DNA of 64,000 nt from a virus. Lineage: Duplodnaviria > Caudoviricetes. Shown here piece by piece: positions 18,585 to 28,541 of this stretch (positions within the stretch are counted from its first letter, which is position 1; each line of letters starts with the position of its first letter). A model generated the notes under the pieces. The model was not told where the DNA came from and did not search any database. It saw only the letters and a list, made by a program, of their open reading frames with translations. The DNA lies in the IMG/VR virus record IMGVR_UViG_3300031867_000009, positions 71,307 to 135,306 of that record. The stretch is one strand, 5' to 3'. A program made the translations under genes and the position numbers.

Positions 18585-19550
18585 AAGCGTGGCATCATGT
18601 AAGTGCCTCCCCGTGGCGATGCTGGAGATATGGGTTTTACTCCGTGGAGACTACCCTTGAGCTAAACTTACAGGCTACCAGGTGAGCAAATGTTCTGAAA
18701 GTCTTATTGGAAAGGATTTGCGGTTAGCTGACCTTAAAGCGACTAGTCAATGGTTGAAGACTTGGATGTGCGGCACCGGCCCCTAAAAGCGGAGATACCA
18801 TATTCTTGGTTTATGAATAGTCAATATAGACCTAAGCTTTGATAAAGCCGTTCAGCTTGCGAAAGGGTTAAGGGTAAGCCGGTTCTAACACACATCGAAG
18901 GTCGTAGGGAGTATGTGTGAGGAGTGTATGCGTCCCTTAAGGAGTGACGTCCAACGCAGTTTTATGGCACCAAGATAGACGCCTTCTCGCGGCGGTGCTG
19001 ATTTCGACTAAGTCTATCCGAATAATAAGAACTCAGTGTAGATGCACGAAACCAGTGTGCTGAGACACAGGCCGAAAGAGTCAGAGCAACGAAGCAAGGA
19101 TACTTGTGGATAGCTGCTGTGCTGTTAGGGCGACCGAAGCAGTGTAGAGCGGTGAGCCGCCAAACTCAAGGTGTGGTGCATTTATTATCGCAATCAAAGG
19201 CAGCATGTGAGTCGGAGGAGTAATAGAAGCGACGATTAAGAGTCGTCGCTGAATCCGAGTTAGGTATAGGTGTGGCAACTTATACACACCTCGGAAATGC
19301 CAACAATCTTCTTTGCCGTGAAGCGGAGAAATCCGTGTATAAGACTTGCGTGTCGCGTGCGAGTAGCCCAGAGGCAAGACTCAGATAGAGTATGACAAAA
19401 GCAAGGATGCAGGAAAATCCTTTTATTGCCGTAAGGTGGGTGGAAGTTAGGGGTAGTCATTCCCCTCTAGGATTTGGCGAGAGCTGGGGCATATTAGGTT
19501 AGGGTCGCTCCCTAGTCTTCGGATATGTCTCCCTAGTGGCTGAATATGGT
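18585..19550 (+). ncRNA. GOLLD-like large structured ncRNA (boundaries approximate)
   Basis: ORF-free, GC-richer, many GNRA hairpins; the 3' part has GAGTAGCCCA, GGTGGGTGGAAG, GGGGTAGTCATTCCCC and GGGTCGCTCCC...GTGGCTGAATA, which I recall as the GOLLD 3' core; lies near phage tRNAs. Confidence 0.65.
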
Positions 19551-19758
19551 TGAAGATAGTATGTGTAGGGTGAAAGCTCCTTATTGTTCGTAAATATCTA
19601 AAGCGAATAGAACCGCATAATAGTTCTATCCAGTGGTGACGGGACCACAGATAATTTCCCGTCATATATGACACCATTGGGGTTGCCTTCTCGTGGCGGT
19701 GTCGTTTAAAACTAAAACCCTTGTTTTTTATTATATAAGAAAAGGAGAGTTATAGGCG

Positions 19759-22370: not shown

Positions 22371-22401
22371 CCTGGTCAGTGCGGCGTTGCAGGAGTATAA
22401 T

Positions 22402-23031
22402 ATGGCATATATTTATAAAATCACAAACAATATAAATCAAAAGGTTTATATTGGTCAAACAATTATGACTCCTGTACAGCGATGGCAAAAGCACAGGAGT
22501 GATGCAAAATTAAATAAACCCTATCCACTATATAGGGCTATGAATAAATATGGTATTGATAATTTTTCATTTGAAATTCTCGAAGAAGTAAAAGTTGAAG
22601 AATTAGATGAAAAAGAACGATATTATATTAATTTATATCATTCTTATATTAATTTTGAAAATAGTAATGGATACAATGCTACATTGGGTGGTAGTAAAGG
22701 TAATCATTACTTTAATCCTTGTATTAATGAAGTTATTGAATGTGCTCAATATATGACTATTAATCAATTAGCTAATCATTTTGGGGTTGGATATGCTACA
22801 ATGAAAAATTATTTACATAATTATAATATTCAACCACAAAAAGGTAGAACTGGTGGTGGAGATAAAAGTATTGCTCAAATAGATATAAATACAAATGAAA
22901 TCATTCAAATTTTTCCAAGCATTGCTGATGCTTCAAGATTTTTTGGTAAAATACCAAAAAATTCTGGCATTAGAGATGTATTAAAAGGAAAAAGAAAAAC
23001 TGCTTATGGATATAAGTGGAAGTATATATAA
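22402..23031 (+). CDS. GIY-YIG homing endonuclease with C-terminal NUMOD1-like domain
   Basis: YIYKITN.IN.KVYIGQT...RW..H...E...GYN.T.GG; C-terminal FPSIADASR...RKTAYGYKWKY; AT-rich. Confidence 0.9.
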   Translation: MAYIYKITNNINQKVYIGQTIMTPVQRWQKHRSDAKLNKPYPLYRAMNKYGIDNFSFEILEEVKVEELDEKERYYINLYHSYINFENSNGYNATLGGSKGNHYFNPCINEVIECAQYMTINQLANHFGVGYATMKNYLHNYNIQPQKGRTGGGDKSIAQIDINTNEIIQIFPSIADASRFFGKIPKNSGIRDVLKGKRKTAYGYKWKYI

Positions 23032-24922: not shown

Positions 24923-26194
24923 ATGGAACAGAAAATAATTCAGATACAAGAGAGGGTGCCACTTCAAAAGGGCATCCCTCTTTCCATACAGCATACCTTT
25001 GCGATGTTTAGCGCATCGGTTCTTGTACCTTACATATTAGGTATCAATCCATCAATTGCTTTACTTATGAACGGAATAGGCACACTTCTATTCATACTCA
25101 TAACGAAGGGCCGCGCACCAGCGTATTTAGGTTCGTCTTTCGCATTCATATCACCAGCTTTATTAGTTATCTCAAACGAAGCTTTAGGCTATAGATATGC
25201 ACTTGGTGGCTTTGTAGTAACTGGTCTGTTGATGTGCGCCGTAGCTATACTTATAAAGTTTGTAGGTACTAAATGGATAGACATTGTACTTCCACCCGCG
25301 GCAATGGGTCCGGTGGTCGCATTGATAGGTCTTGAACTTGCCGGTAGTGCTGCACAAACCGGTGGACTCATGGATAGCACCGGCGCGATGGTAAGTGATA
25401 TCGACCCGAAAGTCGTAATCGTATTCTTCGTCACGCTACTTCTTGCTATGTTTGGCGGTATACTCTATCGTGGCTTTATGAGTGCAATTGCCATACTCAT
25501 TTCAATTGTAGTGGGTTATGTACTTGCTCTATGTCTTGGAATGGTAGATTTTTCTGCAATCAGTTCTACAAGTTGGTTTGCTCGTCCAGCCTTTCAGACA
25601 CCACAATGGAGTTGGCAAGCGATTGTAATTATAATTCCTGCTACACTTGTAGTAGTCTCTGAACACATTGGACACCAGGTCGTCACGTCAGAAGTTGTAG
25701 GTAAAGACCTTCTTAAAGACCCAGGTCTTCATCGTTCAATGTTTGCAGATGGTTTTTCAACAGCTTTATCTGGTCTTTGTGGCTCTTGTCCTACCACCAC
25801 ATATGGCGAAAACATCGGAGTAATGGCAATTACAAAGGTGTATAGCGTTTGGGTTATCGGAGGTGCCGCAGCATTTTCCATACTGCTTTCCTTCATTGGT
25901 AAAGCTTCTATGCTTATTCAGACTATCCCAGGTCCAGTCATGGGCGGAGTTAGCTTCTTACTCTATGGTATGATTGGAGCATCAGGTATCAGATTAATGG
26001 TAGATTCTAAAATTGATTATTCCAAAGCTAAAAATCTTATGATGACATCAGTTGTATTTGTCGTAGGTCTTTCTGGTGTCGCCATCAATTTAGGAAGTTG
26101 TCAGCTGACAGGTATGAGTCTTGCTGCCGTAACAGGAATGATTCTAGGATTTATTACATATCTATTAGATAAATTTAAACTTACAAATCAATAA
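24923..26194 (+). CDS. uraA: Uracil permease (NCS2/NAT family), auxiliary metabolic gene
   Basis: QH.FAMF, PAYLGSSFAFI, EHIGH, TTYGENIGVMAITKVYS signature and PVMGGV..LLYGMI; many transmembrane segments. Confidence 0.95.
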   Translation: MEQKIIQIQERVPLQKGIPLSIQHTFAMFSASVLVPYILGINPSIALLMNGIGTLLFILITKGRAPAYLGSSFAFISPALLVISNEALGYRYALGGFVVTGLLMCAVAILIKFVGTKWIDIVLPPAAMGPVVALIGLELAGSAAQTGGLMDSTGAMVSDIDPKVVIVFFVTLLLAMFGGILYRGFMSAIAILISIVVGYVLALCLGMVDFSAISSTSWFARPAFQTPQWSWQAIVIIIPATLVVVSEHIGHQVVTSEVVGKDLLKDPGLHRSMFADGFSTALSGLCGSCPTTTYGENIGVMAITKVYSVWVIGGAAAFSILLSFIGKASMLIQTIPGPVMGGVSFLLYGMIGASGIRLMVDSKIDYSKAKNLMMTSVVFVVGLSGVAINLGSCQLTGMSLAAVTGMILGFITYLLDKFKLTNQ

Positions 26195-26195
26195 T

Positions 26196-26224
26196 TTGAA
26201 ATTTTTTGAAAATTCTTTTATAAT
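26196..26224 (+). promoter_or_regulatory. Sigma-A promoter of the tRNA array leader
   Basis: TTGAAA-N17-TATAAT. Confidence 0.8.
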
Positions 26225-26298
26225 ATATATAGAAAGTTGAAGAGAGGATATTTAAAAAGTCCACTTAAAAATACAAGCAAATACAAAGGAGAAAAATA

Positions 26299-26421
26299 AT
26301 GTTTAAGTCGTTTGCATGGAATTTGAATAGAGTCGAAGAGGTTATCATAGATAGCCTGGTTTCATGCGCCCCTATTACAGGAAAATTCTATGGTAGGGAT
26401 AAAAGGGTAATACCGATTTAG
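26299..26421 (+). CDS. Putative 40-aa leader peptide (MFKSFAWNLNRVEEVIIDSLVSCAPITGKFYGRDKRVIPI)
   Basis: AAAGGAG RBS; ATG 26299 to TAG 26421; last codons overlap the antiterminator arm. Confidence 0.7.
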   Translation: MFKSFAWNLNRVEEVIIDSLVSCAPITGKFYGRDKRVIPI

Positions 26422-26483
26422 CATTATTTTCTATAAGTGTAATGTATAAGCGGTATTACTCAAAGTGGGTAATACCGCTTTTT
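26405..26483 (+). promoter_or_regulatory. Attenuator: antiterminator arm (26405-26418) and intrinsic terminator (26448-26483)
   Basis: GGGTAATACCG occurs at 26405 and 26467; both copies can pair with CGGTATTACTC (26451-26461); the T-tract ends 6 nt before tRNA-Glu. Confidence 0.75.
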
Positions 26484-26489
26484 AAATGT

Positions 26490-26566
26490 GGTGGTATAGT
26501 GGAACTGGTCAACACGTCGGCCCTTCACGCCGAAGAGTCTGGGTTCAAACCCCAGTACCATCACCA
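26490..26566 (+). tRNA. tRNA-Glu(TTC)
   Basis: Cloverleaf, loop CCTTCAC (C at position 33), ACCA end. Confidence 0.88.
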
Positions 26567-26570
26567 ACAT

Positions 26571-26645
26571 GGTCGCATCGTCTAATGGTTAGGACAATAG
26601 ATTCTCAGTCTATAAATCAGAGTTCGACTCTCTGTGCGATTACCA
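26571..26645 (+). tRNA. tRNA-Glu(CTC)
   Basis: Cloverleaf, loop TTCTCAG, ACCA. Confidence 0.92.
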
Positions 26646-26650
26646 AATAT

Positions 26651-26724
26651 AGGGATATAATTCAGCGGTAGAATGGCTGACTCTTAATCAGTTCACTTGG
26701 GTTCGATTCCCAGTATCCCTACCA
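26651..26724 (+). tRNA. tRNA-Lys(CTT)
   Basis: Cloverleaf, loop CTCTTAA, ACCA. Confidence 0.92.
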
Positions 26725-26727
26725 CAT

Positions 26728-26802
26728 GGTCTATTAGTATAACGGTTATTATATTCGGTTGTCAGCCGAGAGACAAGGGTTCAACTCCCTTATAGACCGC
26801 CA
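26728..26802 (+). tRNA. tRNA-Asp(GTC)
   Basis: Cloverleaf, loop TTGTCAG, GCCA. Confidence 0.92.
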
Positions 26803-26807
26803 TTTAT

Positions 26808-26884
26808 GCCTTATTAGCCCAATTGGTAGAGGCACTAGTCTTAGGAACTAGTCAGTGTGGGTTCGAATCCCACGTAAGGCACCA
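26808..26884 (+). tRNA. tRNA-Leu(TAG), short variable arm
   Basis: Cloverleaf, loop CTTAGGA, ACCA. Confidence 0.9.
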
Positions 26885-26969
26885 CTAGGAAGCAGGACAT
26901 CAAGTCCTAAAACGCTCGCCGCGAAAGGAGCCAAAAGATGCTGTGGGAAACTTGAGCATTGGAAGTTAT

Positions 26970-27046
26970 CTACGTGTGGCGCAGTTTGGTAGCGCGTCTG
27001 ATTTGGGATCAGAAGGCCGTGGGTTCAAATCCCACCTCGTAGACCA
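26970..27046 (+). tRNA. tRNA-Pro(TGG)
   Basis: Cloverleaf, loop TTTGGGA, ACCA. Confidence 0.93.
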
Positions 27047-27049
27047 TAT

Positions 27050-27125
27050 GCAGTAGTAGTTCAGTAGGTAGAACGCCACCTTGCCAAGGTGGAGGCCATG
27101 GGTTCGAGACCCATTTACTGCTCCA
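27050..27125 (+). tRNA. tRNA-Gly(GCC)
   Basis: Cloverleaf, loop TTGCCAA, TCCA. Confidence 0.93.
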
Positions 27126-27126
27126 T

Positions 27127-27200
27127 GTATCGTTAGTGTAGCGGCAACATCACGGTCTTCCAAACCGTGGTCATGGGTTCAAATCCCATACGATACTCCA
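27127..27200 (+). tRNA. tRNA-Gly(TCC)
   Basis: Cloverleaf, loop CTTCCAA, TCCA. Confidence 0.93.
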
Positions 27201-27204
27201 ATAG

Positions 27205-27293
27205 GGAGGGTTGGCCGAGTGGTCGAAGGCGCTAGTCTTGAAAACTAGAAGGTGTAACAGCCTCGCGGGTTCAAATCCACGCACCCTCCTCCA
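27205..27293 (+). tRNA. tRNA-Ser(TGA)
   Basis: Cloverleaf, loop CTTGAAA, long variable arm, TCCA. Confidence 0.9.
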
Positions 27294-27294
27294 T

Positions 27295-27368
27295 ACTCCT
27301 ATAATTCAATGGTAGAATAGGCGACTTTTAATCGTCTTATCCCAGTTCAACTCTGGGTGGGAGTACCA
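27295..27368 (+). tRNA. tRNA-Lys(TTT)
   Basis: Cloverleaf, loop CTTTTAA, ACCA. Confidence 0.92.
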
Positions 27369-27470
27369 TTTTACGAAAATTACTTCAAGGTTATGTTTTA
27401 TGGTTTAATTTTATAAAGTATAATAAGTTAATTTCTACTTATATATAGAAACATAAGGAGGAATTATAAT

Positions 27471-28130
27471 ATGATTGGAACAGAACGTAGACAAGAATTG
27501 ATTAAAAAACGTGGTAATAGGTGCGAATGTTGTGGATTAACTGAGTGGTTAGGAAGTCCAATCAAATTAGAAATACATCATTTAGATGGGAATAGAAAAA
27601 ATGATAGTGAAGATAATTTACAAATATTATGTCCTAATTGTCATTCTTATACCGATAATCACTCAAAAAATTTATTTAAACATACTATTACAGATGAAGA
27701 ATTGATTATTTTATTGCAACAATCATCTAATATTCATCAAGCATTGATTCAAGCAAATTTATCTACTGCGGGGGCAAATTATGATAGGGCTCGTCGTTTG
27801 ATAATTGAAAATAATATAGAACATTTATACATAGATGGAAATAAACAATATATAAAAACAGAATTAGTTAATCATTGTATAGATTGTGGTAAAACTATAG
27901 ATGGACGTTCTACTCGATGTAAAGAGTGCGCAGATAAACATAAGCAAGTAGCGAATTGGCCAGAACGTGAAGACTTTAAACAACTTATTCGTACAACCTC
28001 TTTTGCAGAAATAGGTAGACAATTTGGGGTATCTGGCGCTGCGGTAGCTAAATGGGCAAAACGTTGTAGTTTACCATATCGTAAAAAAGATATAAATAAG
28101 TATAGTGATGAAGAATGGGCAAAATTATAA
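27471..28130 (+). CDS. HNH homing endonuclease inserted in the tRNA array
   Basis: CECCG...LEIHHLDGNRKND...NLQILCPNCHS, a second Zn knuckle and a C-terminal HTH. Confidence 0.9.
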   Translation: MIGTERRQELIKKRGNRCECCGLTEWLGSPIKLEIHHLDGNRKNDSEDNLQILCPNCHSYTDNHSKNLFKHTITDEELIILLQQSSNIHQALIQANLSTAGANYDRARRLIIENNIEHLYIDGNKQYIKTELVNHCIDCGKTIDGRSTRCKECADKHKQVANWPEREDFKQLIRTTSFAEIGRQFGVSGAAVAKWAKRCSLPYRKKDINKYSDEEWAKL

Positions 28131-28142
28131 TTTTGTCTATAT

Positions 28143-28217
28143 ACCCCATTAGCTTAATGGATAGAGTATCCGGCTACGAACCGGCAGATAAGCGTTCGAA
28201 TCGCTTATGGGGTACCA
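28143..28217 (+). tRNA. tRNA-Arg(ACG)
   Basis: Cloverleaf, loop CTACGAA, ACCA. Confidence 0.92.
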
Positions 28218-28221
28218 TTAT

Positions 28222-28298
28222 GGGTTACTATCCCAATCGGTAGAGGAAGTAGGCTCAAACCCTATAAAGTTTCGGTTCGAATCCGAAGTGACCCACCA
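28222..28298 (+). tRNA. tRNA-Leu(CAA), short variable arm
   Basis: Cloverleaf, loop CTCAAAC, ACCA. Confidence 0.9.
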
Positions 28299-28302
28299 AT
28301 AT

Positions 28303-28379
28303 GCACCCTTAGCTCATTAGGTTAGAGCACTGTGCTGATAACGCAGAGGTGCTTGGTTCAAATCCAAGAGGGTGTACCA
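28303..28379 (+). tRNA. tRNA-Ile(GAT)
   Basis: Cloverleaf, loop CTGATAA, ACCA. Confidence 0.93.
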
Positions 28380-28382
28380 TAT

Positions 28383-28458
28383 GCAGAATTAACTCAGTTG
28401 GGAGAGTGCATCCCTTACAAGGATGAAGTCAGAGGTTCAAGCCCTCTATTCTGCACCA
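28383..28458 (+). tRNA. tRNA-Val(TAC)
   Basis: Cloverleaf, loop CTTACAA, ACCA. Confidence 0.93.
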
Positions 28459-28463
28459 CTTAT

Positions 28464-28538
28464 GGGCTGGTAGTTAAATGGGATAACACCTCGCTTGCAC
28501 CGAGGAGTTCTGGGTTCGATTCCCAGTCGGGTCCACCA
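28464..28538 (+). tRNA. tRNA-Ala(TGC)
   Basis: Cloverleaf, loop CTTGCAC, G3:U70 pair, one extra G in the 3' acceptor strand, ACCA. Confidence 0.9.
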
Positions 28539-28541
28539 TAT

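Follow-up and report, generated by a model that had tools for sequence, protein, structure and literature searches.

What controls the transcription of a tRNA array carried by a phage? Phage transfer RNA (tRNA) arrays are usually discussed as constitutive codon-usage helpers or as counter-measures to host tRNA cleavage, and the control of their expression is, to our knowledge, almost unexplored. The question arises for an array of 20 tRNA genes in the complete, 135,306-bp IMG/VR phage record IMGVR_UViG_3300031867_000009. We analysed the right-hand 64 kb of this record (its positions 71,307 to 135,306), hereafter the window, and all positions given below for this phage are window positions. Directly upstream of the array lies an element of about 290 nt, promoter included, in which a strong promoter is followed by a short open reading frame (ORF) with a Shine-Dalgarno (SD) sequence and then by an intrinsic terminator. 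A preliminary description of this DNA had interpreted the element as a leader-peptide attenuator in which the ORF samples a wide range of codons. We find that the promoter, the SD-led ORF, the antiterminator, the terminator and the tRNA array form a real and conserved unit; the codon-sampling part of the interpretation is not borne out. On balance, we read the element as a ribosome-operated (leader-peptide) transcription attenuator that gates a strong phage promoter into the tRNA array.

Mutually exclusive helices between promoter and tRNA array

The promoter, the strong ribosome-binding site, the 40-codon ORF and the terminator are all present where the preliminary description had placed them (Table 1). 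The terminator consists of a 15-bp stem with a 3-nt loop, followed by five T, with a predicted energy of −20.9 kcal/mol, and tRNA-Glu(UUC) starts at 26490, 6 nt past the T run. A simple terminator scan omits this hairpin because its rule, by lengthening the stem into the flanking A/T, leaves too few T in the tail to be counted. The 11-nt arm GGGTAATACCG occurs exactly twice in the window, once in the last codons of the ORF and once in the terminator. As had been proposed, the first copy can pair with the terminator 5' arm, and this pairing, lengthened by an inner helix, gives a predicted antiterminator of −21.7 kcal/mol. A further helix had been overlooked: in the consensus fold, P1 pairs the region of the start codon with the region of the stop codon. 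Four segments of the leader are thereby engaged in three mutually exclusive helices, namely 1:2 (P1), 2:3 (the antiterminator) and 3:4 (the terminator). Compared with shuffled sequence, the whole leader has a fold z-score of −6.07, and none of 200 shuffles folded as well.

Table 1. Parts of the leader and of the array behind it (window positions).
Feature	Position	Strand	Details
Sigma-A/sigma-70-type promoter	26196-26224	+	−35 TTGAAA 26196-26201; 17-nt spacer; −10 TATAAT 26219-26224; 11 of 12 matches
5' untranslated region (UTR)	26231-26284	+	Small hairpin at about 26242-26266; conserved ACTTA..AATACAAG box 26263-26277
Shine-Dalgarno sequence	26285-26291	+	AAAGGAG, 7 nt 5' of ATG
Leader ORF	26299-26421	+	40 sense codons and TAG stop
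Segment 1	26290-26309	+	P1 5' strand; spans SD-ATG spacer, ATG and codons 2-4
P2/P3 stretch	26313-26400	+	Holds invariant 22-nt TTTCATGCGCCCCTATTACAGG; its TATTAC (26373-26378) can pair with the first arm copy
P2	26313-26323 with 26358-26368	+	Inner hairpin 26339-26346 with 26350-26357; within ORF
P3 region	26370-26398	+	Within ORF; less conserved than P2
Segment 2	26405-26432	+	First arm copy 26405-26415; stop codon 26419-26421; P1 3' strand, also antiterminator 5' strand
Segment 3	26439-26462	+	Antiterminator 3' strand (26439-26461); its 3' part is the terminator 5' arm (26448-26462)
Segment 4	26466-26483	+	Terminator 3' arm with second arm copy 26467-26477; five T 26479-26483
P1 (1:2)	26290-26309 with 26415-26432	+	Consensus fold
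Antiterminator (2:3)	26405-26427 with 26439-26461	+	Predicted
Terminator (3:4)	26448-26462 with 26466-26480	+	Predicted
tRNA array, putatively gated	26490-29450	+	20 tRNA genes; Glu(UUC), Glu(CUC), Lys(CUU) and Asp(GUC) first

Comparison of the predicted energies shows that the isolated antiterminator equals or slightly exceeds the terminator in stability (−20 to −25 vs. −20 to −21 kcal/mol in the 20 homologs tested). When the transcript 3' end is at 26464, the antiterminator state (−56.2 kcal/mol) beats the P1 state (−47.8 kcal/mol), and leaving P1 for the antiterminator along a nested path means crossing a barrier of about 16 kcal/mol. In the full-length transcript, the minimum is P1 together with the terminator (−72.3 kcal/mol), and the barrier from the antiterminator to the terminator is about 9.6 kcal/mol. 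P1, which competes with the antiterminator, tips the balance to termination, and the barrier of about 16 kcal/mol implies that an untranslated RNA in which P1 forms first should stay in that state and terminate. By fold energies, then, the untranslated RNA defaults to termination, which the helix inventory of the preliminary description, lacking P1, did not capture.

To represent a ribosome on the leader, a 29-nt footprint was masked at each A-site codon under equilibrium folding. With the mask at codons 1-6, P1 was lost and the equilibrium probability of the terminator was 0.09-0.43. With the mask at codons 7-32, P1 and the antiterminator were both still possible, so that the outcome at these positions hangs on kinetics. 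With the mask at codons 34-41, the stop codon included, the antiterminator was abolished. Since the stop codon lies inside the antiterminator 5' strand, a terminating ribosome would mask segment 2, and the masking result agrees with the earlier claim that a ribosome at the stop masks the antiterminator. The companion claim, that stalling at almost any codon frees the antiterminator, is a robust prediction of the masking at codons 1-6 only; whether it also applies to codons 7-32 is a matter of kinetics. In this model, P1 may restrict the stall positions that are able to switch the leader on.

The mechanism that we propose has three states. In the absence of a ribosome, P2 and P3 would bring segments 1 and 2 together, P1 would zip and hide the start codon, and segment 3 would be left free, so that the terminator would form and the tRNA genes would stay off. 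A ribosome that arrives at the last codons or the stop in time would cover segment 2, again with the terminator formed and the tRNA genes off. A lagging ribosome would block P1 while leaving segment 2 free (certainly for A-site codons 1-6, where it would cover segment 1, and plausibly up to about codon 32); the local 2:3 hairpin would then form first, and RNA polymerase would read into the tRNA genes. Slow decoding would in this way yield more phage tRNA and restored decoding less, which amounts to negative feedback. A broader form of the idea, in which the leader is a general translation 'speedometer' and slow decoding of almost any codon leads to transcription of the phage's own tRNA array in a homeostatic loop, is in our view less likely than not; its triggers would be tRNA depletion, anticodon nucleases or heavy late-gene demand.

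Conservation of the fold and of the reading frame

A search with the leader peptide returned 26 clusters of 39-40 residues with 78-100% identity, and back-translated searches together with DNA patterns recovered the complete leader in 21 distinct DNA copies, which come from cattle-gut and rumen metagenomes. An array led by tRNA-Glu(UUC) stands behind the leader in every copy that reaches that far, and the genes 5' of the leader vary between copies. In 17 of 19 homologs the spacer between the terminator and tRNA-Glu(UUC) is 6-19 nt long, which leaves no room for a separate tRNA promoter. Both promoter hexamers are kept in the homologs with enough upstream sequence. Mean pairwise identity is 86.7% for the leader, compared to 68.8% for the tRNA gene that follows.

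Both copies of the arm are retained in all 21 homologs, which answers the homolog check attached to the preliminary description; each copy shows independent A-to-G changes and always pairs with the 5' arm, which is invariant. The segment 3 sequence GCGGTATTACTC is likewise invariant (21 of 21). When P1, P2 and the terminator are scored over the 21 copies, 99.5% of their cells are paired, vs. 33-43% with slid partners. The variable pairs in these helices (18) are all one-sided, with all but 6 of 1175 cells paired (G-U for A-U or G-C). Within P1, 99.6% of cells retain the 12 core pairs; the changes at 3 variable pairs are confined to one side. The antiterminator is predicted in each of the 20 homologs tested; the sequence of its inner helix differs between sub-groups and includes one covarying pair (UA to CG) in 5 sequences. 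The T run of the terminator is 4-5 T long across homologs. A third, partial copy of the arm motif is found in the 5' UTR, where the conserved box (alignment columns 37-51) reads AGTAATAC in 17 of the 21 homologs and is degenerate in the window (AAAAATAC). This box can pair with the terminator 5' arm or with TATTAC in the ORF, and its pairing with the terminator 5' arm is the predicted fold before segment 4 is made in five homologs.

The reading frame is conserved as well. GGAG stands 7-9 nt 5' of an invariant ATG in all 21 homologs, despite several indels in the flanking UTR; the stop codon, TAG or TAA, is at the same position in 21 of 21; the frame is open throughout in 20 of 21; and the only indel in the ORF is one of 3 nt. 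The ratio of non-synonymous to synonymous substitution rates (dN/dS) is 0.40 in frame, vs. 0.70 and 1.22 in the other two frames. We counted 24 amino-acid variants, compared to 32.9 ± 3.0 in substitution permutations (P = 0.003). The Leu at codon 9 is written with four synonymous codons among homologs, and amino-acid changes are concentrated in loops (codons 11-14, 17 and 31-36). Together, these features are moderate, indirect evidence that the leader ORF is translated, which we consider quite probable. A Pfam search with the leader peptide gave zero matches.

Some peptide variants from short, tRNA-rich European Nucleotide Archive (ENA) contigs (L137-L140) appeared to have lost the stop, with spurious lengths of 57-64 residues. 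These were rejected: TAG is present in the DNA, and the apparent loss stems from gene calls by the source in which TAG was translated as Gln. The window gives no indication that TAG is recoded: reading TAG as Gln gave no specific gain in open frames when compared to control readings of TGA as Trp and TAA as Gln.

The codon content of the ORF had been put forward as a designed sample, and our recount agrees with its figures of 32 distinct codons and 18 amino acids, with His and Gln absent. The proposed comparison with random 40-codon windows also places the ORF high, in the top 0.4% of such windows in the genes of this phage, and homologs keep 28-32 distinct codons. The same 120 nt, however, yield 33 distinct triplets in one of the remaining frames and 30 in the other, and hence the diversity is not specific to the reading frame; we rejected codon sampling as a frame-specific feature on these counts. 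Shuffles of the same composition reach 32 distinct codons in 7% of trials, and given the peptide and the codon usage of the phage, the diversity is marginal (P = 0.034). We attribute it to a structured and non-repetitive sequence that departs from codon bias; a design specific to the frame is not shown. The residues that correspond to the leading tRNAs of the array (E, K, D, L, P, G and S) account for 16 of the 40 codons, which by hand count is no enrichment relative to typical usage.

Attenuation weighed against other readings

Several observations weigh against attenuation by a translating ribosome. Among the 32 distinct codons of the 40 there is no run of regulatory codons. The periodicity of substitution is weak, with 11, 10 and 18 variable columns at the three codon positions. 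Avoidance of stop codons is not significant: 1 sequence contains a stop, vs. 4.1 ± 3.4 expected by permutation (P = 0.28). That sequence, homolog L037, has TGA at codon 7, and the change improves a P2 pair. The third positions of codons 18-27 and 38-40 are invariant, indicating a constraint at the RNA level that might alone produce part of the coding signal. Two-sided pair changes are absent from P1, P2 and the terminator owing to the shallowness of the family (78-100% identity), so that covariation statistics cannot prove the folds. The element is also absent from three complete or nearly complete related phages with terminases 72-92% identical, which carry fewer or other tRNAs behind different leaders. 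This absence indicates that the element belongs to one sub-lineage and moves with the Glu-led array. Finally, transcription-translation coupling, on which the mechanism would depend, is loose in some Bacillota, and the promoters and SD sequences of this phage are of the low-GC Gram-positive type.

The constraint on the RNA itself invites a different account, in which the P1-P2-P3 three-way junction acts as an aptamer whose ligand is a small molecule, a protein or an RNA, for instance a tRNA. The bound ligand would stabilise P1 and keep segment 2 from the antiterminator, leading to termination, and the ORF would be incidental or secondary. The leader does have the generic architecture of an OFF-type riboswitch, in that the three-way junction and the antiterminator have the P1 3' strand in common. 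The 22-nt junction stretch is invariant at every codon position, all changes in stems keep pairing while amino-acid changes sit in loops, the homolog with the premature stop keeps the fold, the fold z-score is as low as −6.07, and the same phage has many structured RNAs, a ROOL RNA included. We nevertheless regard a riboswitch-like or factor-dependent attenuator as unlikely. An Rfam scan of 25900-26600 at E up to 10 returned only tRNA and chance-level matches and no leader, T-box, riboswitch or other known aptamer family; 20-21 of the 21 homologs retain the SD spacing, the ATG, the frame and the stop, the single indel preserves the frame, and the ORF frame has the lowest dN/dS of the three. 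The stop codon falls exactly within segment 2, a placement for which an RNA-only switch has no need. Conservation of P3 is poor, and the junction has no candidate ligand or partner.

Two further accounts separate the terminator from control of the tRNA genes. The element could be an independent small unit, either a gene for a 40-residue protein or a stable RNA of about 255 nt, with its own promoter and terminator; the tRNA genes would then be transcribed by leaky read-through and from upstream, and the role of the duplicated arm would be to fold or stabilise the mRNA. In its order of promoter, structured RNA and terminator the element does resemble a small-RNA or small-gene unit; the 5'-3' closing helix that hides the start codon is reminiscent of fold-back inhibition in small toxin mRNAs; with a T run of just 4-5 T, the terminator may be leaky; and another terminator-like hairpin, before tRNA-Cys, shows that this locus is not the only one with a hairpin 5' of a tRNA. 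In 17 of 19 homologs, however, there is too little space for a separate tRNA promoter, the leader always heads a Glu-led array, and a unit of this kind has no obvious role for an antiterminator as stable as the terminator, made from an exact copy of the arm, in every homolog. Its peptide has no Pfam match, and the residues encoded in loops vary freely. On these grounds we consider an independent unit improbable. It is more improbable still, to the point that we give it very little credence, that the main function of the hairpin before tRNA-Glu lies in processing or stability, through protection of the leader 3' end after RNase P cleavage or guidance of tRNA 5' end maturation. Most homologs do have the hairpin at a distance of 6-19 nt from the 5' end of the tRNA, the established site of RNase P cleavage in tRNA precursors; a 15-bp GC-containing stem followed by 4-5 U, however, has the form of an intrinsic terminator, and the conserved competing helices and the position of the ORF would be left unexplained.

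Attenuation by a ribosome on a leader peptide has well-known counterparts, of which the attenuators of amino-acid operons (trpL, hisL, leuL, thrL, pheL and ilvL) come closest. The phage leader shares with these a short SD-led ORF before an intrinsic terminator, the set of 1:2, 2:3 and 3:4 helices, a stop codon placed so that a finishing ribosome masks segment 2, and a predicted untranslated default of termination via 1:2. Unlike them, it belongs to a phage, stands before tRNA genes and not biosynthetic enzymes, lacks a run of cognate codons, and shows no sequence or Rfam similarity. Its ORF also spans the domain from segment 1 to segment 2, with the start codon in segment 1, the stop codon in segment 2 and about 95 nt of hairpins between them. 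The pheL attenuator is a described case of leader-peptide attenuation (PMC3082878). The nearest parallel for a broad sensor that lacks a strict codon run is the whiB7 upstream ORF (uORF) attenuator of mycobacteria, a general translation-stress sensor in which stalling leads to antitermination and which is activated by knock-down of many amino-acid pathways, tRNAs and tRNA synthetases (PMC10274678). The differences are that the target of whiB7 attenuation is a transcription factor, that the whiB7 uORF is alanine-enriched and variable in sequence, and that it belongs to another host lineage, without homology to the phage leader. The phage leader, with tRNAs as its output, would form a direct feedback loop.

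Attenuators of the ermK, vmlR and bmrB-bmrCD type in Bacillota sense drug-stalled ribosomes, often via specific nascent peptides, and control resistance genes. What they have in common with the proposed mechanism is ribosome-dependent attenuation in low-GC Gram-positives, a strong SD sequence, and read-through when the ribosome is slowed; they differ in sensing drugs and in regulating resistance genes. T-box riboswitches (RF00230) are likewise terminator/antiterminator switches, which report tRNA charging, and the phage arm GGGTAATACCGC resembles the T-box core GGGTGGTACCGCG. The phage leader nonetheless has no RF00230 match at E up to 10 and no Stem I or specifier architecture, its arm is fully paired in the predicted antiterminator without a UGGN bulge, and T-boxes are untranslated leaders. 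A full-text literature search found no paper on attenuation of tRNA genes or of phage tRNA arrays. If leader-peptide attenuation is the correct reading, the phage would gauge decoding speed and tune its tRNA output, and a form of control known for amino-acid, synthetase-related and resistance genes would be extended to tRNA genes.

Related loci and genomic neighbourhood

Beyond the 21 copies, searches added little to the family. A search of 29 related phage records with covariance model R1 gave no true homologs, its sole match (25 bits) being a mere hairpin pair, and blastn against public phage records matched only the tRNA-Glu of Phass-1, an unrelated TAG-recoded phage. Terminator-anchored DNA patterns found no matches in bacterial genomes, and so no prophage or host clue, and in viral contigs matched three already-known loci only. 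Contigs from RNA libraries (4 runs) cover the locus patchily; among them, a high-depth 5.9-kb contig of a relative spans the leader into the tRNA genes. We do not count this contig as evidence, as it shows neither ends nor strand and may be DNA.

In two copies of the leader, L034 (about 1000-1119) and L036 (about 1300-1430), an insert of 127-131 nt separates the terminator from tRNA-Glu. It ends with a T-arm-like GGTTCRACTCC and has no Rfam match at the gathering score; from its sequence, it may be a tRNA-like fragment or a small RNA. The different leaders of the relatives that lack the element, exemplified by L135 (680-1095) and L134 (7997-8227, − strand), are ORF-poor and apparently structured, and extend over 200-390 nt from a consensus promoter to the first tRNA. 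One leader of this pair holds a T-arm-like GGGTTCGACTCCC.

The phage encodes a terminase, a DNA ligase, homing endonucleases and a xanthine/uracil permease in the window, and near-identical DNA is present in cattle-gut and rumen metagenomes from many studies. About 50 nt around the leader promoter are found at five other places in the same 135-kb genome, which makes this promoter a member of a phage promoter class; the next strong promoter after it is at 29460. The window contains 29 tRNA genes, 28 of them downstream of the leader. What had been described as 21 consecutive tRNA genes is an array of 10 + 7 + 3, split by two nuclease ORFs, one for an HNH endonuclease (27471-28130, +) and one for a PD-(D/E)XK nuclease (28717-29124, +). 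A GIY-YIG/NUMOD1 homing endonuclease ORF lies at 22387-23031 (+). Nuclease ORFs in and near the array are consistent with a fast turnover of tRNA content between related arrays.

Directly 5' of the leader promoter, a 423-residue xanthine/uracil permease is encoded at 24923-26194 (+; PF00860, E = 1.9 × 10−96), with no terminator between this gene and the promoter. A related phage has a permease copy that is 91% identical, in another gene order; permease synteny was therefore dropped as a route to leader homologs, since this relative has no leader there. Upstream of the tRNA region, a full-length ROOL RNA is found at 19008-19598 (+), with a score of 304.8 bits against Rfam RF03087 (gathering score 99.1). 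A second terminator-like hairpin with a T run, at 30297-30312 (+), lies behind a long ORF-free stretch and 11 nt 5' of tRNA-Cys (30324), so that hairpins directly 5' of tRNAs recur in this phage.

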